Source: a virus (lineage: Duplodnaviria; Caudoviricetes). From it: DNA of 55,809 bases. The position numbers were made by a program, and so were the translations under genes. The stretch spans positions 1 to 55,809 of the IMG/VR virus record IMGVR_UViG_3300003690_000041. One strand, written 5' to 3'. How positions within the stretch are numbered: the stretch's first letter is position 1; the number at the start of each line of letters is the position of its first letter. A model generated the notes under the pieces. It worked only from the letters and a program-made list of their open reading frames with translations. It made no database searches and was not told the origin of the DNA. Shown piece by piece: positions 24,962-39,198 of the stretch.

Positions 24962-25300
24962 CAAACCCTCCCGAAGACTATACGACACATCAAACAGAGA
25001 AAACGGTAACAGTTCGGTAACAGCTTGAGACCTCAATTGGGTGGGATAGTACCCCCAATGACGCAACCAACATAATAACCATTACAATAGAAAAAACCAA
25101 ATAATTAAAAAATTCCGGGGGGAGTAAGTACCAATGGGAATCGCGACCGCCGGGGGTGCCTACCCCCTCTGGGGTGTGTCGCTGGCGTGGTGGAACGAAA
25201 TGATAGTGATCTCCTGTGGTATTTGCCATGTGTGTACTGTATGGGTTTGCCCATAGAACATGCCAGAACATGTTCTGGCTATTGGACCAAAAGAAAGGCA

Positions 25301-25396: not shown

Positions 25397-26200
25397 ATGT
25401 CAATGTTAATCGAATCCATCCAGAGTGTAGTTGATTTTTGGAACACAAGCCCGGATAAGGCAAAGCAAACGGCTTTCGGAAAGTTGATCTTTGATACCTA
25501 TTTTGGGAGCGTCAAGATGGGTATGGCGTACGCTGGCATTTTTCTTCTTTTGGCTGTTAGGTCTAATAAAGCTAAAGGCGAAAACATCACAGCGTACGCC
25601 TCCGAAGTAGGTTTCTCTGACCTTGCACCAAACACAATACAAGATGCCTATAAAATTGCCCGTGACAATTTTAACATACTGGGCGATTATGAAAAGGTTT
25701 CCCTTGTAATGAGCAAAGACATTGTGCTTGCAAAGTTTTTTGGTGCAAGATTTTCTCCTAAGAGTCAAAAACTTTTCGTACCTAAGTCCAAGGGCGATAA
25801 GGCGAAATACTTGACTAAAAAGGGAGCCTTGAACACCAAGGGACTAGAGATAATGAGAGATGCTTATCTGAACAAGGTCAATGAAAAACTGGATGGGAAA
25901 GGGACACAACGGTCTCAAAAGAGTACGCAGCGTTATCTTAACTCTTTTGGACCTAAGAAAGGTGGTTCCAGGGGTCCTGATTCAACAAAGAACCAAAACA
26001 AGAAAAAAGATCCTTCCCTTGATGCGTTTCAACATGTGGCTGAAGCAATCGCTCAATTAGACAAAATGGACACACTGGACGAAGATGAAACATCTAGCCT
26101 TGTGCAATCCATTGAAACATTGTGTGATATCGTTTGTGAATGTGCCGATCCTGTTGTAAAACGTACCGAATTACTGAAAAGATTAAAACAGGCTAGCTAG
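25397..26200 (+). CDS. Stand-alone hypothetical protein (own promoter and terminator)
   Basis: 267 aa, AAGGAG RBS, opposite strand to its neighbours. Confidence 0.8.
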   Translation: MSMLIESIQSVVDFWNTSPDKAKQTAFGKLIFDTYFGSVKMGMAYAGIFLLLAVRSNKAKGENITAYASEVGFSDLAPNTIQDAYKIARDNFNILGDYEKVSLVMSKDIVLAKFFGARFSPKSQKLFVPKSKGDKAKYLTKKGALNTKGLEIMRDAYLNKVNEKLDGKGTQRSQKSTQRYLNSFGPKKGGSRGPDSTKNQNKKKDPSLDAFQHVAEAIAQLDKMDTLDEDETSSLVQSIETLCDIVCECADPVVKRTELLKRLKQAS

Positions 26201-26238
26201 TTCAGCAGTTAACCGGTTAACCGAACCCTATTTAATTT

Positions 26239-26271
26239 AAAAACCCCTCTCAAATTGAGAGGGGTTTTTTT
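26239..26271 (+). terminator. Intrinsic terminator (possibly bidirectional)
   Basis: AAAAACCCCTCTCAA-A-TTGAGAGGGGTTTTTTT. Confidence 0.88.
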
Positions 26272-26619
26272 GTGCCTATTCCACAAGCTCACCTAATACA
26301 AGCGTATTTACAGAACATGTTCTGTATGAAGTCTCAACCCCGTGATTTTTGATAGATTGCATCATATATTCCACTTTTTTGGTCAATAACGTCACACTAC
26401 TATTAGACAAACTATCTATTCCGTGTCACTATCGGCTACTATCGGACCAATATCGGCATATCCCCACTTTTTGACCCACAAAAGCACACAGCCAAAATCT
26501 ACAAACCGTGTGCTTAATTGTGTTATCTGTGTGCGATCGTTCTACTATCGTGTTGTGTGTGTGCATCGGTTTTCATTGTGTATTCGGTTAATTATATGGC
26601 TACACAGCTATGCTGTCGC

Positions 26620-27258
26620 TTATTGTGGTGTGTGTGTATTTGCTATTGAGAGGGGATATTGTTTCTTTACAGGTAGTTGTGTTATTATGTGATCGGGAGT
26701 ATAGGGGGTTTCATCTGGTGTTTGTATGGGTGTATCAGTGTCTTGAATCGCACCTGTAGGGCGGGTCTCAGAGGAGTGTTGGCTGTCTTCTTGTTCTGTA
26801 AATTCTGCTTCTGTGGCTTGTTGTTGTAGTTGGTTTCTCTCCAGTCTACGCTCCAGCCATTTCTTATAGTTCTTGGGTGCTTGTGGAGGTAGTTGAGGTG
26901 GTTTGAGTTCGATTTCCTGTGTGATAAGTTGTTTCTGACCAAAGGCTTGATTTCGTGTTCTTTCGAGTATCCAAGACTTGGCTTGCCATCCTTTGTCTCC
27001 GTCTCTGATCTCGTTTACCAGTTTGATCTCACCTATTGCTTTTGCTTCTTCTACTCTATCTTTGAAGTTGGTGTATTTGGTTTTCTCTCCGGAGGAGTAG
27101 TCTTCTTCTGCTTTGCGTAGCCAGTGGTAATATGTGTGTTCACGGATACCGCCAGCGAGACACGCTGTCTTGATATAGTGTCCTTTCTCTATTACAGAGC
27201 ATATGCGTCCGAGCATCGTCTGTGTAATGGTTATTTTACCGTGTGTTATGGAGGGCAT
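26620..27258 (-). CDS. terS: Putative terminase small subunit (HTH)
   Basis: IKTACLAGGIREHTYYHWL HTH and WQAKSWILER motif; upstream of the TerL operon. Confidence 0.65.
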   Translation of the reverse strand: MPSITHGKITITQTMLGRICSVIEKGHYIKTACLAGGIREHTYYHWLRKAEEDYSSGEKTKYTNFKDRVEEAKAIGEIKLVNEIRDGDKGWQAKSWILERTRNQAFGQKQLITQEIELKPPQLPPQAPKNYKKWLERRLERNQLQQQATEAEFTEQEDSQHSSETRPTGAIQDTDTPIQTPDETPYTPDHIITQLPVKKQYPLSIANTHTPQ

Positions 27259-27640
27259 GTCCTTGCCTTTTGGAAAGGGCTTCAAGGTATGCGAACAAGG
27301 CTGGAACAGCAGGCGTATGCGCATCGGCACACACGCACCGTTTAGTTACATACCCGCACGCCTTACATATGGCAGACGTATGCGCATCGACTGGCTTCTG
27401 CCAGACATCTATTGCTTCTCGCAAGGATCGGTGTTGTTTCTTGTAGGGAAACGAAGAAAGCCCTTCTTTATTGGAATGGGCTTCAAGGTAGTCGAGTCTG
27501 TCTGAGTCTTTAAGGGCTTCTGCCAGCCTTCGTTGCAAAGTTTGGCGCTCTGTCTCCAGACGAATGATGTCGTTGACATATACATCTATCTCCTCTACTA
27601 AGTCCAACTCAAGTTGGGGTTTATTGGTACGTGTCTTCAT
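27236..27640 (-). CDS. Hypothetical protein
   Basis: AGGAG RBS before ATG 27640; coiled coil and Cys motifs. Confidence 0.55.
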   Translation of the reverse strand: MKTRTNKPQLELDLVEEIDVYVNDIIRLETERQTLQRRLAEALKDSDRLDYLEAHSNKEGLSSFPYKKQHRSLREAIDVWQKPVDAHTSAICKACGYVTKRCVCADAHTPAVPALFAYLEALSKRQGHALHNTR

Positions 27641-27667
27641 ACTGCCTGATCTCCTAGGGAGACTTGT

Positions 27668-27777
27668 AATATACAAAAGTCTGTAAATGCGTCAATCTAT
27701 CACAAAACTATCACAAAACTATCACAAAACTATCACATAGACGTATAAACGATAAGGAGGTTAAGCAAAAATGTCAA
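27668..27777 (-). promoter_or_regulatory. Two leftward sigma70-like promoters
   Basis: TTGACA-17-TATCGT (27777-27749) and TTGACG-16-TATATT (27695-27668). Confidence 0.55.
27697..27737. repeat. 11-bp tandem repeat CTATCACAAAA x3.7
   Basis: Seen directly; intergenic. Confidence 0.92.
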
Positions 27778-27802
27778 CGGCTTTCTGACTGCCTTTGCAC
27801 AC

Positions 27803-28123
27803 CTACCCAGTCCTGCCTCGTTTCAACCCTGATTTTTCCCCACCTGCTACGACTGCAAGTATCTTGTTTTGCGCTTGCGCCAGTTCATATCTGATATTCT
27901 TTGGAACCCTATTCCACCTCTCGGCAACGAGAACAATACGTTCAGCTACACGGTCAGCCCTCTCGCCGACAGGCATGAAACTCCACGCATTGCCCATCGG
28001 ATCACCAGAGAGGGCGTGTATCCGCGCATCCAGAGCAGGAGTAGACATCTTTGGAAGCGCACCGAATTCTTCTACCCGTTTGTCTATCATCTCAACAAAA
28101 CCCATCACCATCTCTCCTTTCAA
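27803..28123 (-). CDS. Hypothetical protein (start may be 28108)
   Basis: AAGGAG RBS. Confidence 0.55.
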   Translation of the reverse strand: MKGEMVMGFVEMIDKRVEEFGALPKMSTPALDARIHALSGDPMGNAWSFMPVGERADRVAERIVLVAERWNRVPKNIRYELAQAQNKILAVVAGGEKSGLKRGRTG

Positions 28124-28135
28124 TTAATTCAGGCA

Positions 28136-28465
28136 TCACGCCTCCACAAGGATAACAGGTGCATCATAGTCTGCGGGCATCTGTGTCTCTATGACGGGGA
28201 TGCCCTTGTAGACAACCTTACTGAACGTAGGTCGGTCTTCTACCTCTTCTGCCGGATATTCTTCGGGATGATCCTCTTCGCTCGTCTGAGGGGACGTGAG
28301 AGCCGTGTAGACCCTATACGCTGGTGGCACCAGTTCAATGACAGCTATCTTCTTGCCCTCCTGCTCCGCCAACTGCACCTCACGGCGCACCCAAGTGATG
28401 ATCGGTGTATCCTTGACGAAAGGCCACTCGTAATCTGTGAATGTGTTGCCATTATGTATGTTCAT
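28136..28465 (-). CDS. Hypothetical protein
   Basis: AGGAGG RBS, 109 aa. Confidence 0.65.
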   Translation of the reverse strand: MNIHNGNTFTDYEWPFVKDTPIITWVRREVQLAEQEGKKIAVIELVPPAYRVYTALTSPQTSEEDHPEEYPAEEVEDRPTFSKVVYKGIPVIETQMPADYDAPVILVEA

Positions 28466-28569
28466 ACAACCTCCTATGTTATGGTGATACCTAGGGGACC
28501 CCTAACTTTCCGGTAGGTATCACCACGCTGTATCACGTTAATTTACAGTAGTTTAAGGAAAAAAAAGAC

Positions 28570-28598
28570 TTGACAAAAGTGTAATATTTTGTTATATT
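28570..28598 (+). promoter_or_regulatory. Strong early promoter
   Basis: A-tract, TTGACA-17-TATATT with extended -10 TG. Confidence 0.8.
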
Positions 28599-28602
28599 AT
28601 GG

Positions 28603-29465
28603 TAGTTCAGGAATTTCACTCAATTAGCCCTGAACTATTTTACTACTTAATTGAGCCTCTCAATCAAGTTCGGTGACTGGAGTGTTATTCCAGAACATGT
28701 TCTGAGCGAGAAAATAATCAAAGGTTTTCTTCTGGTCTTCTCCTGACAATGAAGATCAAGCCTCTCCCTGCCTGAACAGGGAAGAGGCTGACAGGGATAG
28801 TCACAAGGGATGTTCACCCATCACCCTGTGATACCCATCACCTAATGAGATGCTTGGTGGCAGGAAGCCAGCAACGGGTGCATTACCTCTGCATATGTGG
28901 CTGTGAGACAACCAAACCGTGACGATGACACCATCTCTAACCCCTCGCCCAAGATGGCTATGGCGAAAAAAGGGCTTGAAAAGCCCAGAGGCGACGATGG
29001 ATAGCACAGGGTTCAATCCACAGTGAGCGCAACCTCAACATATATCAGAGCAGGATGCAAGGCATTAGTATGAGATGCCATACGACCTCCCTTTATGGGA
29101 GCCGACCTGAAGCAACCAAAATGGAGAGTGCCAATAATGGGCACGATCTCTCGCTTAACACGACAGGAGCCGCAAATCCCGTCCATCTCTCCTTCTGACA
29201 ACAGACCTATCGGGGCAACGGATGCGACTAGCAACCGCAATAACCAACTGGTCCCAGAACATGTTCTGATGGCAAAGGAAGAGAGGATGCGGAGCAGGCC
29301 CAACCCAGTGAGATGAGCGAGCATAGTGAATCCTAATCTCGACCCGTTCAATCGGGGGTGTGGAAACGTCGAAATGCCCCACAAGTCAGCACCTTCTTGT
29401 GGTGTGGGGTGTTGAAACAGGGACTCCTTCAGAACTTGTTCTGATCCCTGTGGACTAACGCTGAT
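28603..29465 (+). ncRNA. Candidate large structured non-coding RNA or leader
   Basis: About 860 nt without a convincing RBS-led ORF; many hairpins, e.g. AGCCTCTCCCTG/CAGGGAAGAGGCT and GGGCTT-GAAA-AGCCC. Confidence 0.45.
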
Positions 29466-29484
29466 AAAAAACAAGGAGATTCAC

Positions 29485-29718
29485 ATGAAAATGATGCAAA
29501 CCACGATCAGCCGAGGCGATGGGCAAGACGATGAAGTGCTTGCGACACACAAGGGCATCAAGCCTAAGCGCGTCACCTTATCAGTGGACAACGGTGACGG
29601 ATTCGGGTGGCAAGACGTTTACACCACCCAGACACTGTATTATGAAGCCGAACTGTTCGCCATCAAGAAATTCCTCAAACAGCATCCCGATGCCGTCTAC
29701 TGCGAATCCTTTGCATAG
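29485..29718 (+). CDS. Early hypothetical protein
   Basis: AAGGAG RBS. Confidence 0.7.
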   Translation: MKMMQTTISRGDGQDDEVLATHKGIKPKRVTLSVDNGDGFGWQDVYTTQTLYYEAELFAIKKFLKQHPDAVYCESFA

Positions 29719-29728
29719 GAGATTCACA

Positions 29729-30007
29729 ATGAGAACAACCAAAGCGATGTCTTTTCTTAAGAAAGACATTGCATTTGCCCTCGATGTCGCAGAAACGAAA
29801 GCCTTGTTGCTTAAACAGGCCAACCACGCGCGAGAAGTTTCGGAGCAGGCATTTCACATGGGCGACACCGAAGACGGGCATCGTTGGTATATCGCCTACA
29901 TCACATTTGCCTACGCTGCTGACCGCCCCTGGAACAGCAGATTGTTTCAGGACATCGCTTCATACGGTAACCTCAGCCGATGGGGTTACTTTGACAGCGC
30001 TCGATAG
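29729..30007 (+). CDS. Early hypothetical protein
   Basis: AGGAG RBS before ATG 29729. Confidence 0.65.
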   Translation: MRTTKAMSFLKKDIAFALDVAETKALLLKQANHAREVSEQAFHMGDTEDGHRWYIAYITFAYAADRPWNSRLFQDIASYGNLSRWGYFDSAR

Positions 30008-30075
30008 CCCACATCGCTGTGAAACCCAAGGGGGTGAGTGAAACTGCTCACCCCCTTTTCTATAAGGAGAAGCGA

Positions 30076-30411
30076 ATGACTTCCAAACAAATATCTGCCC
30101 TGAGATCCATCGTAGAGCGTTATGGTGGCACGTATGACAGCACAGACTTCCCTACATCTGGAGGACTTCAAGGGCTTCCAGATGGGTACGTCAGTGGGTG
30201 GGTGAAGAATGGGCTGGGAGAGAATCGCATCTATATTGGTTGCTCGGATATGTTGGAAGAAATGGGATGGGATTCTGTCGTACCCGCCATTTGCGCCAAC
30301 AAAGGATGCGATTATACAACGGGTATGGAACCTGATCAGGACAGAGGATGGTGTGAAGAGTGCAGAACCAACTCAGTACAATCCTGCCTTATACTGGCTG
30401 GGGTTATCTAA
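30076..30411 (+). CDS. Early hypothetical protein with a C-terminal Cys motif
   Basis: AAGGAG RBS; PAIC...C..TTGMEPDQDRGWCEEC..SVQSCL. Confidence 0.7.
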   Translation: MTSKQISALRSIVERYGGTYDSTDFPTSGGLQGLPDGYVSGWVKNGLGENRIYIGCSDMLEEMGWDSVVPAICANKGCDYTTGMEPDQDRGWCEECRTNSVQSCLILAGVI

Positions 30412-30441
30412 GGAGCGATAAGCTCATAAAAAGGAGTTGAT

Positions 30442-30639
30442 ATGTTTGATCCATTCCACACATGGAATGACACAGCATGGGAAGCCATAGAAAACCACGT
30501 TGACGAAACCTTTGACCTAGGGAACCTTGAGCCATTCGAACTCCCGTTTAAATCAATGTGGGATGCCACCGAAAAAGAAATCATTGATCACGCAAAGGAA
30601 ACCGTAAAACGGTATATAGATTCTAGGAGGACAAGATGA
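30442..30639 (+). CDS. Early hypothetical protein
   Basis: AAGGAG RBS. Confidence 0.65.
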   Translation: MFDPFHTWNDTAWEAIENHVDETFDLGNLEPFELPFKSMWDATEKEIIDHAKETVKRYIDSRRTR

Positions 30640-30845
30640 AACAGACCGCAACGGAAACGCACCACAACCGTCAGCTTACTCTAAATCGTATCGACATGTT
30701 ATGCCGGATGCTCACTGTTCAACGATTGCAAACCGATCCTTGGGGGTGGGAGCGCATTCTGGATCGCATCAATAAACTGAACGACACCTACCGCGTGATG
30801 ACTATGTTGGTGAGAACAAATCGCGACAACCCTTTGAAACCATAG
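30636..30845 (+). CDS. Early hypothetical protein
   Basis: AGGAGG RBS, ATGA overlap. Confidence 0.6.
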   Translation: MKQTATETHHNRQLTLNRIDMLCRMLTVQRLQTDPWGWERILDRINKLNDTYRVMTMLVRTNRDNPLKP

Positions 30846-30879
30846 CCATTGTACGCGTGAGATCCAATCATTACATGCT
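30844..30879 (+). ncRNA. Orphan TIGR-like 36-nt guide unit
   Basis: AGCCA-TTGTACGCG-TGAGATCCA-ATCATTACA-TGCT has the same 5+9+9+9+4 layout as the array units. Confidence 0.55.
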
Positions 30880-30922
30880 TGGGGATGAGTGAAACTGCTC
30901 ATCCCCTTTTCTATAAGGAGAT

Positions 30923-31204
30923 ATGATGATGGAAAAAGAATACGCTGAATCAATCGAAAGAACGGGAGCACTCATCGCTTCCTTCGCAGAATTCACCAAT
31001 CTGGCGATGAAGAAACACGGACTCCGACCAGAAGAACTGGTGCGCACGGGGATCACCTTCGCGGCACTCGTAACAATCGCCATGTTCGACCCCAAATACG
31101 GGGAGATAGACAGATTCATCAAGGCTAGTGTGGAGGCGTTTGAAGAGGAGACAAACCTGATAAAGGAAGAATTCGAAACTGTGAGATACTTCTTCGGTAA
31201 ATAG
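30923..31204 (+). CDS. Early hypothetical protein
   Basis: TAAGGAG RBS. Confidence 0.7.
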   Translation: MMMEKEYAESIERTGALIASFAEFTNLAMKKHGLRPEELVRTGITFAALVTIAMFDPKYGEIDRFIKASVEAFEEETNLIKEEFETVRYFFGK

Positions 31205-31218
31205 AGGAGACCCAGAAC

Positions 31219-31314
31219 ATGTTCTCAAAAGCATTCAAGATAATATCGTGGTGGTGCACAATGCTGTGCTTAGGATGGTGTCTGGGGTGGCTACTCGTAT
31301 GGGGCTGCTCGTAA
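31219..31314 (+). CDS. Possible 31-aa hydrophobic W/C-rich peptide
   Basis: GAGGAG RBS; MFSKAFKIISWWCTMLCLGWCLGWLLVWGCS. Confidence 0.4.
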   Translation: MFSKAFKIISWWCTMLCLGWCLGWLLVWGCS

Positions 31315-31329
31315 AGGAGGACGAAGAAT

Positions 31330-31608
31330 ATGAAAGCGATAGAGGAAAACTGTGAGGAAGAGGTATGGATTCACTGGCAAAAGTTGATAAGCCTTGGTGT
31401 TATTCGACAGAAAGAACCAGTTTTCACAATAGTGGATCGCGTTCTCAAAGTAGAGGAGGACGGCGACTACGGTATGGGCAAGACGATGAAGTGCTTGCGA
31501 CACACACTGGAAAACCTGACAGATAGAGAGGATTCACGATGGCACATGCAAAGAAGCATCGACAGGCAGAGAAACTGCTTAAAGATGCTGACCGTACCAC
31601 TTCAGTAG
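31330..31608 (+). CDS. Hypothetical mosaic ORF (ENCE..W..WQK motif)
   Basis: AAGGAGG RBS; shares its motif with 31539 and 31982. Confidence 0.5.
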   Translation: MKAIEENCEEEVWIHWQKLISLGVIRQKEPVFTIVDRVLKVEEDGDYGMGKTMKCLRHTLENLTDREDSRWHMQRSIDRQRNCLKMLTVPLQ

Positions 31609-31796
31609 AAGAGGAAGCGCTACACCTCGAAATGGCGCACGTAAATTGGACGATCATTTACGTAGAAAACTGTGAGAAAGAATGGATTCGCTGGCAAAAG
31701 GGGGAAGACAATGACAGCGACCTGATCACAGTGCACGCATTGCCCATCGGATCAGTGGAGGGCGAACACAAAACAGATAGGGAGGATTCACGATGA
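31539..31796 (+). CDS. Hypothetical mosaic ORF
   Basis: GAGG RBS; N-terminus paralogous to 31793-31969. Confidence 0.5.
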   Translation: MAHAKKHRQAEKLLKDADRTTSVEEEALHLEMAHVNWTIIYVENCEKEWIRWQKGEDNDSDLITVHALPIGSVEGEHKTDREDSR

Positions 31797-31969
31797 CACA
31801 CGCAGAGAAGCATCGACAAGCAGAGAAACTGCTTAAAGATGTGGAGCGTACCAGACGGATGCATGAGAACAAACGTCGGCACTATTCAGTTGTCAAAGAA
31901 CAGACCTTCTGGAGCTACTTCGATCAGCACCACTCCCACCTGACAACGGCTATGCTCACGTGCCAGTAA
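31793..31969 (+). CDS. Hypothetical protein (58 aa)
   Basis: GGGAGG RBS; MTHAEKHRQAEKLLKD. Confidence 0.5.
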   Translation: MTHAEKHRQAEKLLKDVERTRRMHENKRRHYSVVKEQTFWSYFDQHHSHLTTAMLTCQ

Positions 31970-31981
31970 AAGGAGATTGAT

Positions 31982-32230
31982 ATGTTGAACAGTAAAGACG
32001 AGAACAGCATCATCGCTTACCACCACCTACTCGACTTCTGTGTCAAGGTGGAAGTGGGGATGGTAAACATCGCACAGACGAAAGAACGCATCATATATGC
32101 CATTGCAACCGAAGAAGAGCCACACGTTGTTCAGTTTCTGGAACAGGCCCTGGAATACGTGGAAAACTGTGAGATCGAGTGGCTCAAGTGGCAGAAGGAG
32201 GGAGACCGTGTATCCGCAAATGGATATTGA
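31982..32230 (+). CDS. Hypothetical protein
   Basis: AAGGAG RBS. Confidence 0.65.
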   Translation: MLNSKDENSIIAYHHLLDFCVKVEVGMVNIAQTKERIIYAIATEEEPHVVQFLEQALEYVENCEIEWLKWQKEGDRVSANGY

Positions 32231-32393
32231 CGACAACCTGATCACAGTGTTCGAAGTGGCGCGTCTTACCCTACGGTCACGCATGATACATCAGATAATA
32301 GCAGAGGAACTGGACCTGTCTGATGAAGCGATGGCTGAATTGCAATTCTACACCGAAACAGTTCTGGAAAAGGAGGAACGAAGGGAGAGATAA
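32220..32393 (+). CDS. Hypothetical protein (start uncertain)
   Basis: Acidic ORF with IAEELDLSDE. Confidence 0.5.
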   Translation: MDIDDNLITVFEVARLTLRSRMIHQIIAEELDLSDEAMAELQFYTETVLEKEERRER

Positions 32394-32411
32394 CCAACCG
32401 GGGGGACTTAC

Positions 32412-32440
32412 AATATAACACATATCCCTCTATAAGTCAA
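32412..32440 (-). promoter_or_regulatory. Antisense sigma70-like promoter inside the early operon
   Basis: TTGACT-17-TATATT with extended -10 TG on the minus strand. Confidence 0.6.
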
Positions 32441-32480
32441 GTAGTTAAACCAGAACATGTTCTGATGAAAGGAGAAACAC

Positions 32481-32885
32481 ATGCAACTGGAGATGGCACG
32501 GCTGGCGCTTGAAAGCGCACTCTACGAACACAGACAGAAGATCATCGAGATAAACGATGAAGAACTGTCTCTGTGTGAACGCCTACTCAGACGCTTTGAC
32601 ATGCTGGACGAAGACAAAGCGTACGTGGGCAGAGAATATGATGACGATTTCCGCCCCAAAAAGGGAGACATTGTGCGAGCCAAAGAGATAGGAACAGAGG
32701 GCGAGATGGGAGGCAGACTACCCTCTGGGTTCGCAATCATCCACTCAATAGAAGAGAAAACACTACACCTCGAATGGCTGTGGGGAAGCAAGGTATTCAC
32801 GGGCGGGAGAACCCCCGGAGAGACCAACTGGAATTCCGTCAAAGAAGAACTTTTTCATATCATGCGGTCAAATTTATCGACATAA
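32481..32885 (+). CDS. Hypothetical protein
   Basis: AAGGAG RBS. Confidence 0.7.
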   Translation: MQLEMARLALESALYEHRQKIIEINDEELSLCERLLRRFDMLDEDKAYVGREYDDDFRPKKGDIVRAKEIGTEGEMGGRLPSGFAIIHSIEEKTLHLEWLWGSKVFTGGRTPGETNWNSVKEELFHIMRSNLST

Positions 32886-32899
32886 AGGAGAGCACTCAC

Positions 32900-34345
32900 A
32901 TGGCAACAACATCAAACAACACGCAGACCGTGACTGTCCAAGCAGCAGCGAAGGAACTGGAAGAAGCCCTCAAGCTCCGTGCCCATGACCAGCAGAACAT
33001 CCTGTTTGAGGGGCCACGGATCATTCTCCCGGCTCATTACCGCAACAACCCCCTCGCTGCCGTGAAGGACATCGAAGAGTATTACGACCACCTGGAAGAC
33101 GATGTCGAGTCTCGCTTTACTGTGATCGGACACCCCTCGGACACCCTGAACGCCTTCACCAAAGGCATCGAGTCCACCTTCGGGACAATTACGGGATCGT
33201 CACACACCGTCAATACCCTGATCGGCCCGATGAAGATCCCCGGTCAGTCCCGGTCTATCCAGATCGGGTATGACGAGACCCTGACCGTCCCTTACGGGAA
33301 CATCAAAGTTCCGGGGCTTCCTGTCTCCCTCAACGTGAACGTGAAGGACAACCACGGCAACCCGATGGAAAGTATGCTACTGGTCCAGGCCAACTTCAAA
33401 GCCATCTACCAGCCTCTGGTGGACGACATTGAAACGAATACCCGCAAATGGCTCACCGAGAAGCCCATCTTCCTGCACAAAAGCATTGACTCTGCGTACA
33501 AGTTCCTCAACTTCTCCGGCTTCGATCCCGAAAGCATCATCTATTCCAGGAATGAACAGAAAGACCTGGATGCGCTGGTGTATGCCCTTATCAGGGACCA
33601 GAGTGGGTGGGAAGAAGAAGGTCTTCGGTTCCGTCGTACCATCCTGTTAACAGGCGAATACGGTGTTGGCAAGACGGCAGCAGCAGCTATCATCGCACAG
33701 ATGTGTCAGAAATATGGGAAGACATTCATTATGGTGCGTCCCGGCGACGACATCGTGATGGCCTTCAATGCAGCGATGACCTATCCTTCCTGTGTGGTCT
33801 TCTTCGAAGATGTGGACCAAGAACTCTCTGGTGCTCGCGATGAACGCGTCAATGCCATCCTCAACACCATTGACGGGGTGCTGTCGAAAGATGCAGAGGT
33901 GATGACTATTCTGACGACCAACCACCCTGATCGCATCCAGAAACCTATGATGCGATCAGGAAGGATCGACAGCGTGATCAAGCTGGGTAGCGTAGATGAC
34001 CGCGTGATGGGTGGGATCGTGGACTACCACTGCAAGAAAACGGATGACTCCATCAACATCGAAGACCTACTTCGCGTTGCTGACGGGTTCCCTCCTGCCT
34101 TCCTAGTGGAGATGTGCAAGCGTGCCAAGCTGTATGTGGGACGCGGTGGAATCATCAAGCAAGAGGATCTGGTCGATGCGATCAAGTCCCTGTACTCGCA
34201 ATACAAGATGATGCGTGCTGACGAAGTGGAGTTCACTTCACCCATCGACACCACCCTGAAGACGCTGGTGAAGGACACAGTGTCAGAGGTTGTCGAGAGC
34301 CAGTTCGAAGAGTTCGACTTCTTCGAAGCAGTCCGAGAGAATTAA
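32900..34345 (+). CDS. AAA+ ATPase (classic AAA clade)
   Basis: Walker A LLTGEYGVGKT, Walker B VVFFEDVD, LNTIDG, TTNHPDRI..MMRSGRID. Confidence 0.9.
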   Translation: MATTSNNTQTVTVQAAAKELEEALKLRAHDQQNILFEGPRIILPAHYRNNPLAAVKDIEEYYDHLEDDVESRFTVIGHPSDTLNAFTKGIESTFGTITGSSHTVNTLIGPMKIPGQSRSIQIGYDETLTVPYGNIKVPGLPVSLNVNVKDNHGNPMESMLLVQANFKAIYQPLVDDIETNTRKWLTEKPIFLHKSIDSAYKFLNFSGFDPESIIYSRNEQKDLDALVYALIRDQSGWEEEGLRFRRTILLTGEYGVGKTAAAAIIAQMCQKYGKTFIMVRPGDDIVMAFNAAMTYPSCVVFFEDVDQELSGARDERVNAILNTIDGVLSKDAEVMTILTTNHPDRIQKPMMRSGRIDSVIKLGSVDDRVMGGIVDYHCKKTDDSINIEDLLRVADGFPPAFLVEMCKRAKLYVGRGGIIKQEDLVDAIKSLYSQYKMMRADEVEFTSPIDTTLKTLVKDTVSEVVESQFEEFDFFEAVREN

Positions 34346-34360
34346 ACCTCCACCACCACC

Positions 34361-34398
34361 GCCCCCCTGCCTATTCCCCTACGGGGCAGGGGGGCTTT
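34361..34398 (+). terminator. Putative terminator after the AAA ATPase
   Basis: GCCCCCCTGCC...GGCAGGGGGGC followed by a short T run. Confidence 0.6.
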
Positions 34399-34422
34399 AA
34401 GCTCCCCACGAAAGGAGAAACA

Positions 34423-34599
34423 ATGAGATGCGTGAAGAAAGGAGACCTCGTAGAACGTGTCTCCAATGACAAAGCACACGCCATGGTGTCCACGGGAGGA
34501 TGGGCATATTGTCCAAAAAATAAATGGAAACGAAGGAGAGGCAATGGGAGAAGTAGTCCTGAAAAAAGAGGGAAGAGTCAGGTTCGTAAGGGGGAATAG
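34423..34599 (+). CDS. Small hypothetical protein (58 aa)
   Basis: AAGGAG RBS; MRCVKKGDLVERVSNDKA...GWAYCPKNKWK. Confidence 0.6.
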   Translation: MRCVKKGDLVERVSNDKAHAMVSTGGWAYCPKNKWKRRRGNGRSSPEKRGKSQVRKGE

Positions 34600-34720
34600 G
34601 TATCGGGTGTATGTCGGGGACGATATGGTATGGGAGATCCTTTTCTCTGGTCTCCCGGCATTCATGGAAGGGCTGAAAATATTCAGAGAACATGTTCTGA
34701 TGGAGGAACAAGATGGATAA
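34544..34720 (+). CDS. Small hypothetical protein
   Basis: AAGGAG RBS before ATG 34544. Confidence 0.5.
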   Translation: MGEVVLKKEGRVRFVRGNRYRVYVGDDMVWEILFSGLPAFMEGLKIFREHVLMEEQDG

Positions 34721-34991
34721 AATACCTGCTGAAATTACCAAAGGAGAGATGTTCGTTTACAAGTGGCAAATGTCTATGCTCGGACACTTCTTCACCCTGC
34801 TGGCAAATGCTATGGCACGGGCAGATCCGGGTAACAGCGACAAGCTGATGCTTGCATACCCTGAAGAAATGGCAGCGATGATTCTCTTCAGGGAAGAAGA
34901 AGGATGGTGGCCTGATGCCTGTGTGCGTATCAAAGAAAGGATGGATTATGAGTACCCCAATGCAAAAAGAAGCCCTGAAAGAAGCGTTTGA
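34713..34991 (+). CDS. Hypothetical protein
   Basis: GGAGG RBS; GHFFTLLANAMARADPGN..KL..AYPE. Confidence 0.7.
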   Translation: MDKIPAEITKGEMFVYKWQMSMLGHFFTLLANAMARADPGNSDKLMLAYPEEMAAMILFREEEGWWPDACVRIKERMDYEYPNAKRSPERSV

Positions 34992-35418
34992 TGTCCTTGG
35001 AGAACAAGGTGACAACGAATCCATGGCTGCTATTGTCAAGCTCAGAATCATATTTAACAAAACACTGGACCAACCAGAGCGTACGAACATAGCCATCACA
35101 GCTTTTCAAAGCCTGCAAGAAGACAATATCCTGGAAAATCACGGTATTCACGATGTCGATGTAGTGATACCGGACGGATGGGGAAAGAAAGAGTATGTCA
35201 TCTGTGGTGGCTGTGACGAAAGGATGGAAGAATCCAGCGCATATTATTCTGAACGTGGAGACGAATACTATTGCGGAAACTGCTATGCTGAATACTACAC
35301 CTCCTGCGATGCTTGCGGGGATGAGTTAGACCGCGACAATGATGTTCACTACGTAGGAGAGAAAGAACTTTGTGAGTCATGCTACGAAGACAAAAAGGAG
35401 GAAGCACCATGGCTCTGA
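34948..35418 (+). CDS. Hypothetical protein with tandem CxxC zinc-binding motifs
   Basis: CGGC, CGNC, CDAC, CESC. Confidence 0.65.
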   Translation: MSTPMQKEALKEAFDVLGEQGDNESMAAIVKLRIIFNKTLDQPERTNIAITAFQSLQEDNILENHGIHDVDVVIPDGWGKKEYVICGGCDERMEESSAYYSERGDEYYCGNCYAEYYTSCDACGDELDRDNDVHYVGEKELCESCYEDKKEEAPWL

Positions 35419-35771
35419 CACAAGGAGACCTCGACCATTTCATTGGCACCACACAGTGGTTCAAGCATTTTCTCGGATATCTATACACCGAAGGCGTCCG
35501 GCACGTAGCAGAGGAGGGAGAGGCTTATTGGCTGCTGGACGCCATCTTTTCGTGGCAGACCCCTACGCTCAAGAGCTACGAGCATCAGTTCTGGAGCCTT
35601 ACAGTGACCCTTGAGGACGAAACAAGGAATGCCACGCTTCAATGTGTGTCTGACACCCTTCCATATGGGGAAATTTTAGCGACACAAGAGATAGGATACA
35701 CAGATTTCCCTATGGACCACATTGAACTGTGGTTCGCCAACAACGTGCTGTATTTACCTTCGGAACATTGA
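35409..35771 (+). CDS. DUF6876-like protein
   Basis: LDHFIGT, YTEGV..VAE..EAYWLLDAI, IGYTDFP, VLYLPSEH. Confidence 0.75.
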   Translation: MALTQGDLDHFIGTTQWFKHFLGYLYTEGVRHVAEEGEAYWLLDAIFSWQTPTLKSYEHQFWSLTVTLEDETRNATLQCVSDTLPYGEILATQEIGYTDFPMDHIELWFANNVLYLPSEH

Positions 35772-35772
35772 T

Positions 35773-36003
35773 ATGATCACCGAATACTTCATCCAAATCA
35801 ATACAAGAGGATACCTCGCAATGACATGCTGTATTTGTGAAGAAGAGATCGAAGTGGAACCCCTGTCGGGGTGGAGTGAAGGATACAACGCCGACCCAGT
35901 GGTGCCTGAAGGTAGGTGCTGTAACAACTGCGACGCAGACGTGGTAGTGCCAGAGAGGATGCGCCGTGTTATGCAAGGCAAGCCACAGCGCACACACCTG
36001 TAA
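35773..36003 (+). CDS. Small Cys-rich hypothetical protein
   Basis: CCIC...GYNADPV..GRCCNNC..VVPER. Confidence 0.65.
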   Translation: MITEYFIQINTRGYLAMTCCICEEEIEVEPLSGWSEGYNADPVVPEGRCCNNCDADVVVPERMRRVMQGKPQRTHL

Positions 36004-36011
36004 AGGAGGAG

Positions 36012-36215
36012 ATGATGGTGGAAGCAAAGAAGGGACTGAAAGAAGCTGTTGACTTCGTGCATGAGCAAAAAGATTCTGTGGAAATCACACAGGACGCGAA
36101 GGGAAACTACAAGTTCATCGTCAAAGCATACTTCAACCCAGACCAAGAAAAGGAGACCCTGCTCAGAGTGAAACGAATCATGAAATCGCTGAACAAAGAC
36201 TTCAGCAACATGTAA
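36012..36215 (+). CDS. Hypothetical protein
   Basis: AAGGAGG RBS. Confidence 0.65.
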   Translation: MMVEAKKGLKEAVDFVHEQKDSVEITQDAKGNYKFIVKAYFNPDQEKETLLRVKRIMKSLNKDFSNM

Positions 36216-36248
36216 TGCGCATACATATGCGCATAGGAGACAGACATC

Positions 36249-36623
36249 ATGTATGAAGAAGACACCTTAATAGCCAAAGAAGAAGTCATTGATATGATGA
36301 AAAGTAAACACTTAAACTCCTGGCTTTTGATAGGTGCTGGACCCGATGGAACAGCACACGCCATCTACGGAGACAGGAGGTCGATTGCCTACTCTTTCAT
36401 CAAATCATTATCCATCATTCCCGGACTACAGGAACTGCTGGAAAAGGCATTGGAGGCTGCTATGGAGACAATAAAAGAATGCGGTTCCCTCATGGAGGTA
36501 AACGAGCAGGAGCAGGAAGGCCTAATCCGTGGAATGAAAGACTTCACAAAATCACACTTAGAGTCCCAGAAAGGATTTATAACAGACTGGTCAAGCGTGC
36601 AGAGTCCAAAGGGCAAGGACTGA
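36249..36623 (+). CDS. Hypothetical protein
   Basis: AGGAG RBS; 3' part overlaps the RHH ORF. Confidence 0.6.
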   Translation: MYEEDTLIAKEEVIDMMKSKHLNSWLLIGAGPDGTAHAIYGDRRSIAYSFIKSLSIIPGLQELLEKALEAAMETIKECGSLMEVNEQEQEGLIRGMKDFTKSHLESQKGFITDWSSVQSPKGKD

Positions 36624-36670
36624 GCTACACCGTAGTAGAAATACTGAATCGTATCTCAAAATTCCTATAA
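36479..36670 (+). CDS. Ribbon-helix-helix (Arc/CopG-like) DNA-binding protein
   Basis: HGGKRAGAGRP leader, KITLRVP beta strand and two helices. Confidence 0.65.
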   Translation: MRFPHGGKRAGAGRPNPWNERLHKITLRVPERIYNRLVKRAESKGQGLSYTVVEILNRISKFL

Positions 36671-36683
36671 GGAGACAAAAAAG

Positions 36684-37208
36684 ATGACAGCATCAAAAGA
36701 TGAAAGACCAAAAAACTACACCTTCTTCGGTGGTGTACGTGTTCCTGTCCCGAAATGGTTGGCTGTGGACCTCGCTGTTGCACGCCAATATTCAAACATG
36801 ACCCGTCCACAGGTCTGTAATATGATCAATGACGCCAATGGAAGACATCCGACTAATGGGGCACTCTCTTCTATCGAAAGCGGTAAGACGAAAAAGATAG
36901 GGAAATTGCTGTTGAACGGAGTGATTCAGTTCATCGCCAACTTTGGCCCCCCTAAATTGGCGGAAAATGTAGACAAATATGAGGATGCTGATGTCGTCAA
37001 AGTGAAGAAGTATGAAGCCTTCGCTGAAATTGAGACGCTCGAAAAAAAAGTCAATGAATCTGAAGATCGGCTGGACAGGATGTTCGCTGCTTTTGAAGAC
37101 CTGGATGCCGACGAACAACAGATCATATGCACTCTGACAGAAAGACTTGCAAAGGCCAGCAAGGTGTCTGCTGCTGTCCAAGAGTTCACGGAGAAACACA
37201 CGGCATAA
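36684..37208 (+). CDS. XRE-family HTH regulator
   Basis: ARQYSNMTRPQV...ALSSIESGK; TAAGGAG RBS. Confidence 0.65.
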   Translation: MTASKDERPKNYTFFGGVRVPVPKWLAVDLAVARQYSNMTRPQVCNMINDANGRHPTNGALSSIESGKTKKIGKLLLNGVIQFIANFGPPKLAENVDKYEDADVVKVKKYEAFAEIETLEKKVNESEDRLDRMFAAFEDLDADEQQIICTLTERLAKASKVSAAVQEFTEKHTA

Positions 37209-37278
37209 CCGTGTATATTATGAGACCCATATCGTGTGTGTGAACCGTTATGCCTATGAGACCCAGACTGTTCATGTG
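37207..37278 (+). ncRNA. TIGR-like mini-array (two 36-nt units)
   Basis: AACCG-N9-TGAGACCCA-N9-TGTG twice, in register. Confidence 0.75.
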
Positions 37279-37288
37279 AAAATAATCC

Positions 37289-37318
37289 TTGACATGGAGG
37301 TCCATGTGTGTGTATCAT
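37289..37318 (+). promoter_or_regulatory. Sigma70-like promoter upstream of the main array
   Basis: TTGACA-18-TATCAT. Confidence 0.55.
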
Positions 37319-37725
37319 GAAGCACACTAAAAAATAGGTTGCCGATAAACTTGATATTATATATCTTTAATATCGCAGAATTAAGAGCCAATAGTAAAAA
37401 GGGTGTCAAGTCCCTTCGGCAACTATTGGCTCTTTTTCTGTTTCATAAGGAGGAACTGTGGCTCTCCTCAATAAAAACGCCACCGTATCGGCTACGTTAC
37501 AGCGCCTTGACCCTCGATGGGTCTCGCCTAATACCACGGGGGGGGATATGCGCATGTACCATGAAGTCTAACATGTACAACATTTACCTCTTCCTGCAAT
37601 TAATGGATAGCGAAGCAGGGATAGCGAAGCGTGGGGTACATGTACCATGAGTAAGACGGTAAGGGAAGAAAAGTATTTCCTTACCTTTTTACATGAAAAA
37701 AATTAGGTCGGTTCTGAGAAAAGAA

Positions 37726-38159
37726 AACCGTTCTCCTAATGAGACCCACCCTTTACATGTGAACCATTTTACTCATGAGACCCGTCATTTTTATGTGAAC
37801 CATCTTACTTACCAACCCAACCTCAGGTGTGAACCATAGCCTTTATGTGAACCATATGCCTTATGAGACCCGTCATTTTTATGTGAACCATTTTACCTAT
37901 GTGAACCATAGCCTTTATGTGAACCATAAATCTCTTGAGACCCGTCACATAAATGTGAACCTTTTGCCCAACGTGAACCGAAGCTTGAATGAGTCCCAGA
38001 GCCAGCATGTGAACCGTCAAACAAGTGAGAACCAAAGTGTGTGTGTGCTTAACCGTTAAGCATTATGTGACCCAGAGGTATCATGTGAACCATACTCATC
38101 TTGATACCTATATTTATTATGTGAGCCAGTAACCGTTTGAGAACCAGTTATCGAATGCG
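37726..38159 (+). ncRNA. TIGR-like tandem interspaced guide-RNA array (24 spacers, mostly 9 nt; 18-nt period)
   Basis: Two repeat types, TGTGAACCR and TGAGACCCR, separated by variable 9-mers; ends in TGCG 33 nt before a Nop/IS110-fold gene. Confidence 0.85.
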
Positions 38160-38192
38160 TTTTCCCAGAACATGTTCTGAAAGGAGAAAGAC

Positions 38193-39032
38193 ATGCAAGA
38201 GAAAGAGATCAGGCTGATAATAGACAGCTTCTATTCCATCCAGCACCTGCGCATAGAAATAGGCAACAGAATGAAGATGCTGGTGCGAGACTACCCAGAA
38301 GAAGTAACGGAAGAAAAAGCAGGTGAGTTACACGAAATGATCAGTGGCAACCTGATTCGTACAGAAAAAGAGATAGAGAAAAGGGTGCGTGCTTTTATCA
38401 AACCACTACCCCTCTACCAACTGTGGCTCAAGCCACACGTAAAAGGGATAGCTGAATTGCTGGGTGGTGCCCTCATTGCTGCCATTGAAGACATCGGTAA
38501 ATTTGACACGGTGTCCAAGCTGTGGATATATTGTGGCATAGGGCTAAAGCCTGCCCTGGACAAAGAAGGTAACCCATTACTCGATGGGGATGGCAACATC
38601 CTATATGAGATACAGCGCAAGAAGAAAGGAGAAAAGATAAACTACTCCCCTTTCCTGAAAACCCTGTGCTGGAAGATAGGGGAATCATTCGTGAAGACAG
38701 GGACGCGTGGGTTCTACGGGGATATGTATAAGAAATACAAAGAAAGGGAGACAAGGAAACAAGCAAGAGCAGGTGTTCAGATCGTTGCTGAAGGGGATGC
38801 ACAAAAGCTCAGGAAGGAGGGGAAGAAAGCAATAGGTAAGGCACACATACATAACAGGGCCAGGAGAAAGGCTGTTAAACTGTTCCTGAGCCACCTATGG
38901 GAGGTATGGAGAGAGATAGAAGGGTTGCCCACGCGTGTCCCCTATGTGATAGAGCATCAGCCTGACACGGGAGTGACACATCATTACATTGATCCACCGG
39001 GGTGGCATCTGGAAAAAGATAAGGGAGACTAA
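38193..39032 (+). CDS. TasA-like RNA-guided protein (coiled coil plus Nop / IS110 C-terminal-like domain, no nuclease domain)
   Basis: VKGIAELLGGALIAAIEDIGKFDTVSKLWIYCG, YSPFLK, YGDMYKKYK, HIHNRARRKAVKLFLSHLWEVWR; no N-terminal DEDD/RuvC or HNH; adjacent to the array. Confidence 0.8.
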   Translation: MQEKEIRLIIDSFYSIQHLRIEIGNRMKMLVRDYPEEVTEEKAGELHEMISGNLIRTEKEIEKRVRAFIKPLPLYQLWLKPHVKGIAELLGGALIAAIEDIGKFDTVSKLWIYCGIGLKPALDKEGNPLLDGDGNILYEIQRKKKGEKINYSPFLKTLCWKIGESFVKTGTRGFYGDMYKKYKERETRKQARAGVQIVAEGDAQKLRKEGKKAIGKAHIHNRARRKAVKLFLSHLWEVWREIEGLPTRVPYVIEHQPDTGVTHHYIDPPGWHLEKDKGD

Positions 39033-39198
39033 AAATGGCAGGGACATAGGCAGAACTTCCTGCTAATGACAGCTTGAAGAAAATTCTGTCAGTTTTTATT
39101 CCGGTCTGTCACCAGTTGCATTTTTCTTAGAAAAATCTTGCGTTATACGTCCTCACTCAAACCCATTCGGTTTTATGCAATCAACCAAGGAGAGAGCA

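Follow-up and report, generated by a model that had tools for sequence, protein, structure and literature searches.

The tailed phage (Caudoviricetes) held in IMG/VR as record IMGVR_UViG_3300003690_000041 carries two short elements, at positions 30844-30879 and 30006-30028, that appear to derive from the guide arrays found in TIGR (tandem interspaced guide RNA) systems, in which such guides serve Tas proteins. The window analysed here is the whole of that viral record (55,809 bases; estimated completeness 76%), and it encodes a Tas protein of its own. The first element is a complete unit standing alone and, together with a further unit inside the gene for the terminase small subunit (terS; 26749-26784), is a real solo unit as far as sequence can tell; the second element is truncated. 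We give a little better than an even chance to the view that both elements are genuine TIGR guide pieces, each placed where a small early gene has its 3′ end, and that the complete one is an intact, working guide. The arrangement suggests that guides can be scattered singly through a genome.

In the dual-repeat type of TIGR system, as described by Faure 2025 (PMC12045711), a unit is 36 nt long, and its repeats start with UG, end with CCA and are separated by 9-nt spacers. Arrays open with a 5′-truncated edge, close with a 3′-truncated edge followed by a rho-independent terminator, and most often hold 5–15 units, the analysis there covering 5-kb flanks of tas (PMC12045711). An extra base pair joining the two halves of the edge, “supported by covariation”, is described for TasR; Tas binds one 36-nt RNA as a dimer through both repeats, and the complex binds an 18-bp site with one spacer on each strand (PMC12045711). 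TasA is presented as an RNA-guided repressor in reporter assays in a preprint that places guides upstream or downstream of coding sequence or inside it, in disordered protein regions (Xu 2026, 10.64898/2026.09.09.750476), and cleavage of the guide precursor (pre-tigRNA) by SpTasH involves Y289 and H296 (PMC13421893). The open questions that these authors name include the origin and growth of arrays, the definition of a processable unit, and the targets and roles of nuclease-less TasA.

Results

Anatomy of the two elements

The complete unit lies on the plus strand (30844..30879) and reads AGCCA-TTGTACGCG-TGAGATCCA-ATCATTACA-TGCT, with the 5′ half-edge at 30844-48, spacer A at 30849-57, the loop at 30858-66, spacer B at 30867-75 and the 3′ half-edge at 30876-79; it thereby has the 5+9+9+9+4 = 36-nt make-up of a dual-repeat unit. 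Its repeat ends follow the pattern ..CCA-N9-TG....CCA-N9-TG.., with box D (UG) opening each repeat and box C (CCA) closing it. The two half-edges supply the G-C version of a covarying edge pair, and all 18 repeat positions, this compensatory pair included, are in states typical of the family. The flanks are those of an array's beginning and end, CCAT|AGCCA ... TGCT|T followed by an 11-bp hairpin and a run of T. Because it combines a 5′-truncated edge, a 3′-truncated edge and a terminator, the unit has the layout of a one-unit array. The tandem repetition usual in arrays is absent, both elements being single, and none of the scans found neighbouring units beside either of them.

The unit is fused to the end of a gene. 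It begins at base 2 of the TAG stop codon of a small early open reading frame (ORF; 30636..30845, plus strand), which encodes 69 aa of no recognised family; an in-frame insertion of 12 nt after 30808, seen in three metagenome runs, is consistent with this ORF being a real coding gene. On the other side, 1 nt past the unit, starts an intrinsic-terminator-like hairpin (30881..30906, plus strand); its stem is 11 bp long, and TTTTCT and then the next gene's ribosome-binding site come after it. A second copy of the same terminator (30030..30055, plus strand) starts 1 nt past the truncated element, and the two belong to a 41-nt repeat in which 30030-30070 is 95% identical to 30881-30921. These hairpins are the strongest terminator-like site of the region and fold far better than shuffled sequences, and the window holds just two copies of the module. 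A scan for sigma-70-like promoters, the only promoter type covered, found none at 30056-30075 or 30907-30928, and no homologue of the hairpin cassette was found in 2.57 Mb of other loci. The 36-nt units themselves fold no better than shuffles; this is uninformative, since weak folding is expected for RNAs held by protein.

The truncated element (30006..30028, plus strand) consists of a half-edge AGCCC, a spacer A ACATCGCTG and a loop TGAAACCCA. It lacks spacer B and the 3′ half-edge, and is therefore 5+9+9 only, 13 nt (9+4) shorter than the complete unit, with a score of 5.4 bits when treated as a full unit; its anchors are CCC (or CCA with an 8-nt spacer) and then TG....CCA, with no 3′ TG. 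Holding only the first 23 nt of a unit, it cannot serve as a guide in its present form. This element, too, begins at base 2 of a TAG, that of an ORF listed as 29519..30007. The beginning of this ORF touches an exact 33-nt repeat (29519-29551 and 31474-31506), of which the first copy is skipped by all four metagenome runs mapped here and is thus either specific to this record or an assembly artefact. Because these runs skip 29519-29551, the ORF more likely starts at the ATG at 29729 (29729..30007, plus strand), which gives a product of 92 aa, again of no family.

When the two copies are compared, the half-edge, loop and hairpin module are identical at 50 of 56 positions, in contrast to spacer A, which is identical at only 2 of 9 (Fisher p = 7e-5). 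This pattern of conserved flanks and variable spacer is the repeat/spacer contrast seen in arrays, and the element at 30006-30028 is most likely a truncated sister unit, now a relic. On re-reading the sequence, the strings and coordinates that a preliminary description of this DNA had given for both elements proved to be right throughout, and so did its statements that each starts at the upstream stop codon, as a two-unit mini-array nearer tas does, that the same hairpin follows both, and that the distance to tas is about 7 kb (30879 to 38193, or 7.3 kb).

Chance resemblance and the family model

The simplest alternative is that short TIGR-like motifs happen to lie beside a duplicated terminator. 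We consider this very improbable, and the answer for both elements depends on the model with which they are scored. In its favour, it was visual inspection beside a conspicuous repeat that first revealed the elements, one-mismatch 9-mers abound, and scores on a matrix built from the 24 repeats of the window's own arrays are at chance level (see below). Indeed, taken alone, the 9-mers are not significant: TGAGACCCA with at most one mismatch occurs 29 times against 17 expected, and TGAGATCCA is also present within a coding region at 30101. On the other side are several tests that use more of the unit. Outside the arrays, just two places, 30846 (plus) and 26782 (minus), carry the box C/D skeleton CCN-N9-TGNGANCCN-N9-TG; 0.07 occurrences are expected from shuffles, and 1 of 200 shuffles had at least two (p = 0.005). 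A relatives-only model, built from 68 in-phase units of nine related loci with the window excluded and with a term for the edge pair, gives the complete unit 23.2 bits, the eighth highest among plus-strand positions and inside the 19–25 bits of the window's true units, a score reached in 1 of 500 shuffles. A half model (half-edge, N9, loop) gives the truncated element 19.2 bits, a value that none of 300 shuffles reached, with the units of the mini-array at 16.7. In 1.57 Mb of other Tas loci, the relatives-only model found no match of at least 18 bits on the strand opposite to tas.

The stop-codon register provides a further test. A loop-like 9-mer lies exactly 15 nt past the start of the stop codon at 3 of 319 mechanically defined ORF ends, against 0.18 expected, and the three are the mini-array, which itself defines the register used in this test, and the two elements at 30844 and 30006.

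The related loci also account for the divergent scores. Within the family there are two edge alleles, TGTGAACCA and TGCGAGCCA, and in the relatives AACCA is paired with TGTG, and AGCCA with TGCG or TGCT. Covariation links position 2 of the 5′ half-edge to position 3 of the 3′ half-edge (A-T in 34 windows, G-C in 45 and G-T in 5), and chimeric edges in one locus (L165) place the covarying pair within one unit. Because the family has these two edge alleles with a covarying pair, the window's own matrix undervalues the unit at 30844. The individual states found in the two elements recur in the relatives as well: AGCCA..TGCT ends in the arrays of L004 and L164, ATCCA loops in L161, L165 and L168, and the combination of AGCCC with TGAAACCCA, as in the truncated element, in the arrays of L164 and L167.

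The Tas protein and the canonical arrays

The structural genes of the phage lie on the minus strand, and small plus-strand genes occupy about 25.4 to 44 kb. Among the latter is tas (38193..39032, plus strand), so that a cognate Tas with a Nop-type domain is encoded in the phage itself. Compared with PDB sequences, the product matches 9mty_A at E 2.1e-23 (residues 151-323 of the chain, the Nop-type part) and TasH (21kl_A and others) at E 5.4e-09. It belongs with PHROG 4285 (3e-42), an IS110-like ‘transposase’ family, and 332 relatives were found, many of them with PF02371; against Pfam, the protein itself matched no family at E <= 0.01. Searches of PDB sequences, Pfam and PHROG matched no nuclease domain, and since the protein is 279 aa long and has the Nop-type domain only, we class it as apparently TasA-like. 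In the alignment of the C-terminal dyad its Y251 corresponds to Y289 of SpTasH, and H263, close to the second dyad position, is invariant in 15 close relatives.

Directly upstream of tas lies the main dual-repeat array (37726..38159, plus strand), in which 9-nt repeats TG[AT]GA[AC]CC[AG] alternate with 9-nt spacers and two phase breaks occur. The mini-array (37207..37278, plus strand) reads AACCG-N9-TGAGACCCA-N9-TGTG twice, and its first half-edge starts at 37207, inside the TAA stop of ORF 36684..37208. In the part of the main array near tas (38075-38110), a ‘repeat’ TGATACCTA nearly matches, when reverse-complemented, the spacer GAGGTATCA that precedes it by two steps (one mismatch in an 18-mer test), and a hairpin could form there. 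An Rfam scan of the window returned no family.

Dual-repeat arrays are found immediately beside tas, upstream or downstream. The elements at 30844 and 30006 are remote from the arrays of the window: tas begins 7.3 kb and 8.2 kb downstream of them, respectively, about 15 ORFs away, strand and replicon being shared.

Further solo units

A third solo unit, absent from the preliminary description, lies on the minus strand at 26749..26784, opposite to tas, and reads AGCCA-ACACTCCTC-TGAGACCCG-CCCTACAGG-TGCG. The window matrix gives it 19.63 bits (0.0025 such matches expected), the relatives-only model 24.9 bits. The unit occupies, in frame, residues 183-194 of the 236 encoded at 26620..27330, in the C-terminal tail; PHROG 4102 (residues 35-143) identifies this gene as the terminase small subunit, and the unit thus lies beyond the conserved domain.

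The only syntenic relative found, L003, shares an AAA-ATPase, a helicase and other genes with the phage and encodes a Tas that is 51% identical; its array lies downstream of tas and has the same TGTGAACCA edge. This locus, too, holds an isolated unit, AACCA-TATTGACAA-TGACACCCA-CATTACTTT-TGTG, at L003:523-558 (record G001:5793-5828), in an intergenic position 9.5 kb upstream of tas. It scores 19.2 bits on the matrix of the locus's own array, which 1 of 200 shuffles reaches, and is followed by a near-full edge and then the ribosome-binding site of the next gene, with no terminator. In the whole record the skeleton gives eight forward matches, none in reverse and none with the control; one of its matches (G001:44-75) falls in apparent coding sequence at the end of the contig. 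The suggestion in the preliminary description that single guides are distributed outside arrays thus holds at the level of sequence for the complete early-gene unit, the terS unit and the unit of this relative; it does not extend to the element at 30006, which holds no more than a unit's opening 23 nt.

Among Tas loci at large, solo units are not the rule. In the metagenome relatives L160-L168, most of them on short contigs, units occur only beside tas. No close relative of the phage was found in INPHARED, nor in IMG/VR when the Tas, ORF 30076 or AAA-ATPase proteins or the hairpin pattern were used as queries, nor in JGI metagenomes with the hairpin pattern.

An IMG/VR scan for units with the TGTGAACC edge gave 71 loci and an initial indication that dispersed singletons are common in phages. 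This was rejected because most of the loci are 9-nt-periodic, collagen-like Gly-X-Y coding repeats on the opposite strand; a Tas relative is encoded in only 9 of the loci L091-L159. The collagen-like Gly-X-Y repeats of large phages, with their 9-nt periodic ‘CC’, satisfy the TIGR skeleton as well as unit matrices at high scores, and such coding repeats are a warning for motif-based TIGR finders.

Evidence against a working guide

Several observations weigh against the unit at 30844 being an intact, working guide. Neither of its edges is full, and minimised arrays were processed only with full edge repeats in the TasR and TasH experiments described in PMC12045711. At the second position of the C-terminal dyad, the Tas of the window has D258 where SpTasH has H296, and because of this replacement self-processing is uncertain. 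On the window matrix the unit scores 12.47 bits, with array units at 19.9 or more, and shuffled windows hold 0.63 matches at its score and 13.8 at that of the partial element. The preliminary description had proposed a genome-wide scan against shuffled controls and had named common equal-scoring hits in shuffled sequence as the result that would count against it; with the window matrix that is what was found, and it is the relatives-only model, the skeleton and the register that carry the case instead.

The search for targets was likewise negative. Across 24 units, each tried in two geometries, the window yielded no target with two or fewer mismatches, IMG/VR held no exact target site, and the two genome matches in 596 Gb, in metagenome-assembled genomes (MAGs) of a proteobacterium (Proteobacteria MAG) and of an Oscillospiraceae member (Oscillospiraceae MAG), are at chance level. 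Among 34 other Tas loci scanned with locus-specific matrices, an isolated match was found in three (L009, L041 and L057), about the chance rate of the threshold; such matrices, with their extra columns, also miss the solo units of the window itself. L164, a relative that is fairly close and whose upstream flank spans 8.8 kb, has no solo unit, and the truncated sister at 30006 shows that units of this kind decay.

The populations of the phage point in the same direction. It is common in seawater metagenomes (20 runs from 16 studies, with no RNA run on record among them), and contigs of four runs (X2, X3, X5 and X6) were aligned to 26000-39100. In X2, X5 and X6, which come from three studies, 30855-30927 is replaced by 19 nt, so that these variants lose everything from the last 3 nt of spacer A through loop, spacer B, TGCT and hairpin to the ribosome-binding site and keep TAG-CCATTGTAC, that is, the 5′ AGCCA and 6 nt of spacer A; X3 does not have the 30854/30928 joint. 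The 5′ part of the unit thus exists without the remainder in these three variants, and because three of the four lack most of it, the unit is either dispensable or recent. At the other junction a different upstream sequence abuts 30053 (X6) and 30075 (X5). The junctions at 30006 and 30844 are hot spots of gene shuffling.

Variation of a different kind is seen in the arrays and in terS. The main array has 18 nt inserted after 37789/37790 in X6 and has 130 nt (37768-37897) replaced by 24 nt in X3; such whole-step indels among strains are direct evidence of natural gain and loss of units. In X5, spacer A of the first mini-array unit (37212-37220) carries two single-nucleotide indels 5 nt apart, one a deletion and the other an insertion, so that its 9-nt length is kept in non-coding DNA, and the terS unit of the same run has a +1/-1 pair of indels within spacer A, again with the length kept.

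A competing explanation, which we regard as possible if doubtful, is that the elements are inert relics, fragments of array ends copied together with their terminator from junction to junction by recombination in a hyperplastic early region, and now able only to terminate transcription. Both junctions are breakpoints of strain variation (the 30855-30927 swap in X2, X5 and X6; 30053 in X6; 30075 in X5), the hairpin and ribosome-binding site form a module repeated at the two of them, the copy at 30006 is truncated, the edges are not full and no target was found. A precedent exists in the promoter-early-stem-loop (PeSL) cassettes, intergenic stem-loop modules at the borders of indels (Comeau, Arbiol and Krisch 2014, PMC4122927); these composites of a terminator stem-loop and an early promoter shuffle the early genes of T4-like phages. 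The hairpins of the window, however, do not fit the definition of a PeSL, because they have no sigma-70-like promoter, and there are two copies only. It is also difficult to see in relics why all 18 repeat positions of the complete unit, the compensatory pair included, should be family-typical, or why a stop-codon register should be common to three gene ends; and duplication followed by drift does not by itself predict a spacer A that differs at 7 of 9 positions between flanks identical at 50 of 56.

Other repeats in the window

A perfect 14-bp palindrome, CAGAACATGTTCTG, recurs about ten times, one copy being imperfect, at 25264, 26311, 28691, 29255, 31213, 32451, 34686, 38166, 40598 and 44276, mostly a few bases upstream of plus-strand ribosome-binding sites, that of tas included, and is probably an operator, promoter element or RNA hairpin of the early programme. 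Small early genes arranged as tandem paralogues occupy 31510-31853 and 31659-32258, with 90 nt at 87% and 51 and 36 nt at 75–76% identity. At 27694-27737, in the divergent intergenic region where the minus-strand and plus-strand blocks meet, stand 3.7 copies of the 11-nt CTATCACAAAA, which look like iterons or operators.

Discussion

The anatomy of the unit at 30844, its fit to the family, its strand, its terminator and its register can be read directly from the DNA; the path from this unit to a functioning guide can be sketched by analogy with characterised Tas systems. The unit would be transcribed as the tail of the messenger RNA of the upstream early gene, ending at the terminator. A TasA dimer would bind the box C/D anchors and clamp both repeat modules, with the 5′ AGCCA and the 3′ UGCU paired through the covarying G-C and with UGAGAUCCA as the loop. 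Trimming at U|AGCCA and UGCU|U would then release a 36-nt tigRNA, either through the C-terminal loop of Tas, as with Y289 and H296 in SpTasH, or by host RNases, and the complex might bind an 18-bp DNA site, one spacer per strand, and block transcription without cutting.

It is also worth considering that the same motifs may act in cis on the phage's own messenger RNA, as the preliminary description had proposed. In this case TasA, bound to box C/D sequences in the 3′ untranslated region (UTR) of the early messenger RNAs, would cut at the stop codon or mask the terminator and so tune stability or read-through. We judge this quite improbable. Both elements do run precisely from a stop codon to a terminator, half-edge and loop remain perfect even in the truncated copy, which would suffice for one Tas protomer, and SpTasH is described as cleaving pre-tigRNA autonomously (PMC13421893). 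Tas, however, is described as a dimer on one 36-nt RNA, held through both repeats (PMC12045711). Furthermore, the unit at 30844 is missing in three of four variants in which the neighbouring genes are unchanged, and a function in cis leaves both the unit embedded in terS and the solo unit that stands in front of a gene in L003 unexplained.

One may go a step further and imagine that single TasA guides are built into the transcription programme of the phage, through the 3′ ends of early messenger RNAs and through the late terS message, so that the guides present would change as infection proceeds; Tas-dependent excision at the stop codon would remove the protective terminator hairpin and thereby couple guide biogenesis to decay of the message. 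We offer this as a speculation and think it unlikely. Were it true, processing would have its natural minimal substrate in truncated-edge solo units, which could also be the seeds of array growth.

It is informative to compare these units with known arrangements. The unit at 30844 resembles those of dual-repeat TIGR-TasA arrays in having a half-edge on either side of spacer A (9 nt), loop and spacer B (9 nt), in its boxes D and C, in its edge covariation, and in having a Tas of the same family encoded on its own strand. It differs from them in being single, in lying 7.3 kb from tas, in being fused to the stop codon of an unrelated gene and in having neither edge full, and one of the two copies here, at 30006, is truncated. 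The tigRNAs of Xu 2026 are similar in that the position of guides is flexible and can be intragenic, and in that TasA is a repressor (10.64898/2026.09.09.750476). Those arrays are nevertheless described as ‘surrounding tas loci’, with intragenic units that lie within tas and are mostly of the stem-loop type, whereas here single dual-repeat units lie at or in unrelated genes (early ORFs and terS) 7–11 kb away.

Orphan and mini CRISPR arrays are guide units away from effector genes that are used, if at all, in trans. They belong to a different system with a different repeat logic, and the likeness is one of analogy only. The PeSL cassettes of T4-like phages, reportedly the subject of work by Arbiol in 2010, offer a second comparison. 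Like them, the hairpin module is a repeated stem-loop between small early genes at the borders of indels by which close strains differ (PMC4122927), with joints or loose ends in the metagenome contigs at 30053, 30075 and 30854/30928. Unlike them, it exists in two copies only and has TIGR repeat sequence on its 5′ side, and a terminator was found with no early promoter detected (one promoter type scanned).

The TIGR-Tas system itself is known, but single dual-repeat units kilobases from tas, at unrelated stop codons or in terS, were not found in print. The texts of Faure 2025 and Xu 2026, in the parts available, do not describe solo units kilobases from tas or use the word ‘orphan’; their supplements and TIGRSafari may list such units.

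These observations carry implications for how guides are counted and for how arrays may arise. A search for arrays confined to the surroundings of tas would undercount guides. Where single units are joined to stop codons and terminators, or embedded in unrelated genes, they are natural minimal substrates, with truncated edges, on which the rule that full edges are needed can be tested, and the combination of presence/absence polymorphism with truncated copies gives a glimpse of how units arise and are lost. Should solo units prove to be unexpressed, they would be fossils that inform on array turnover; should early and late operons express them, the supply of guides would be timed by the phage's own programme.

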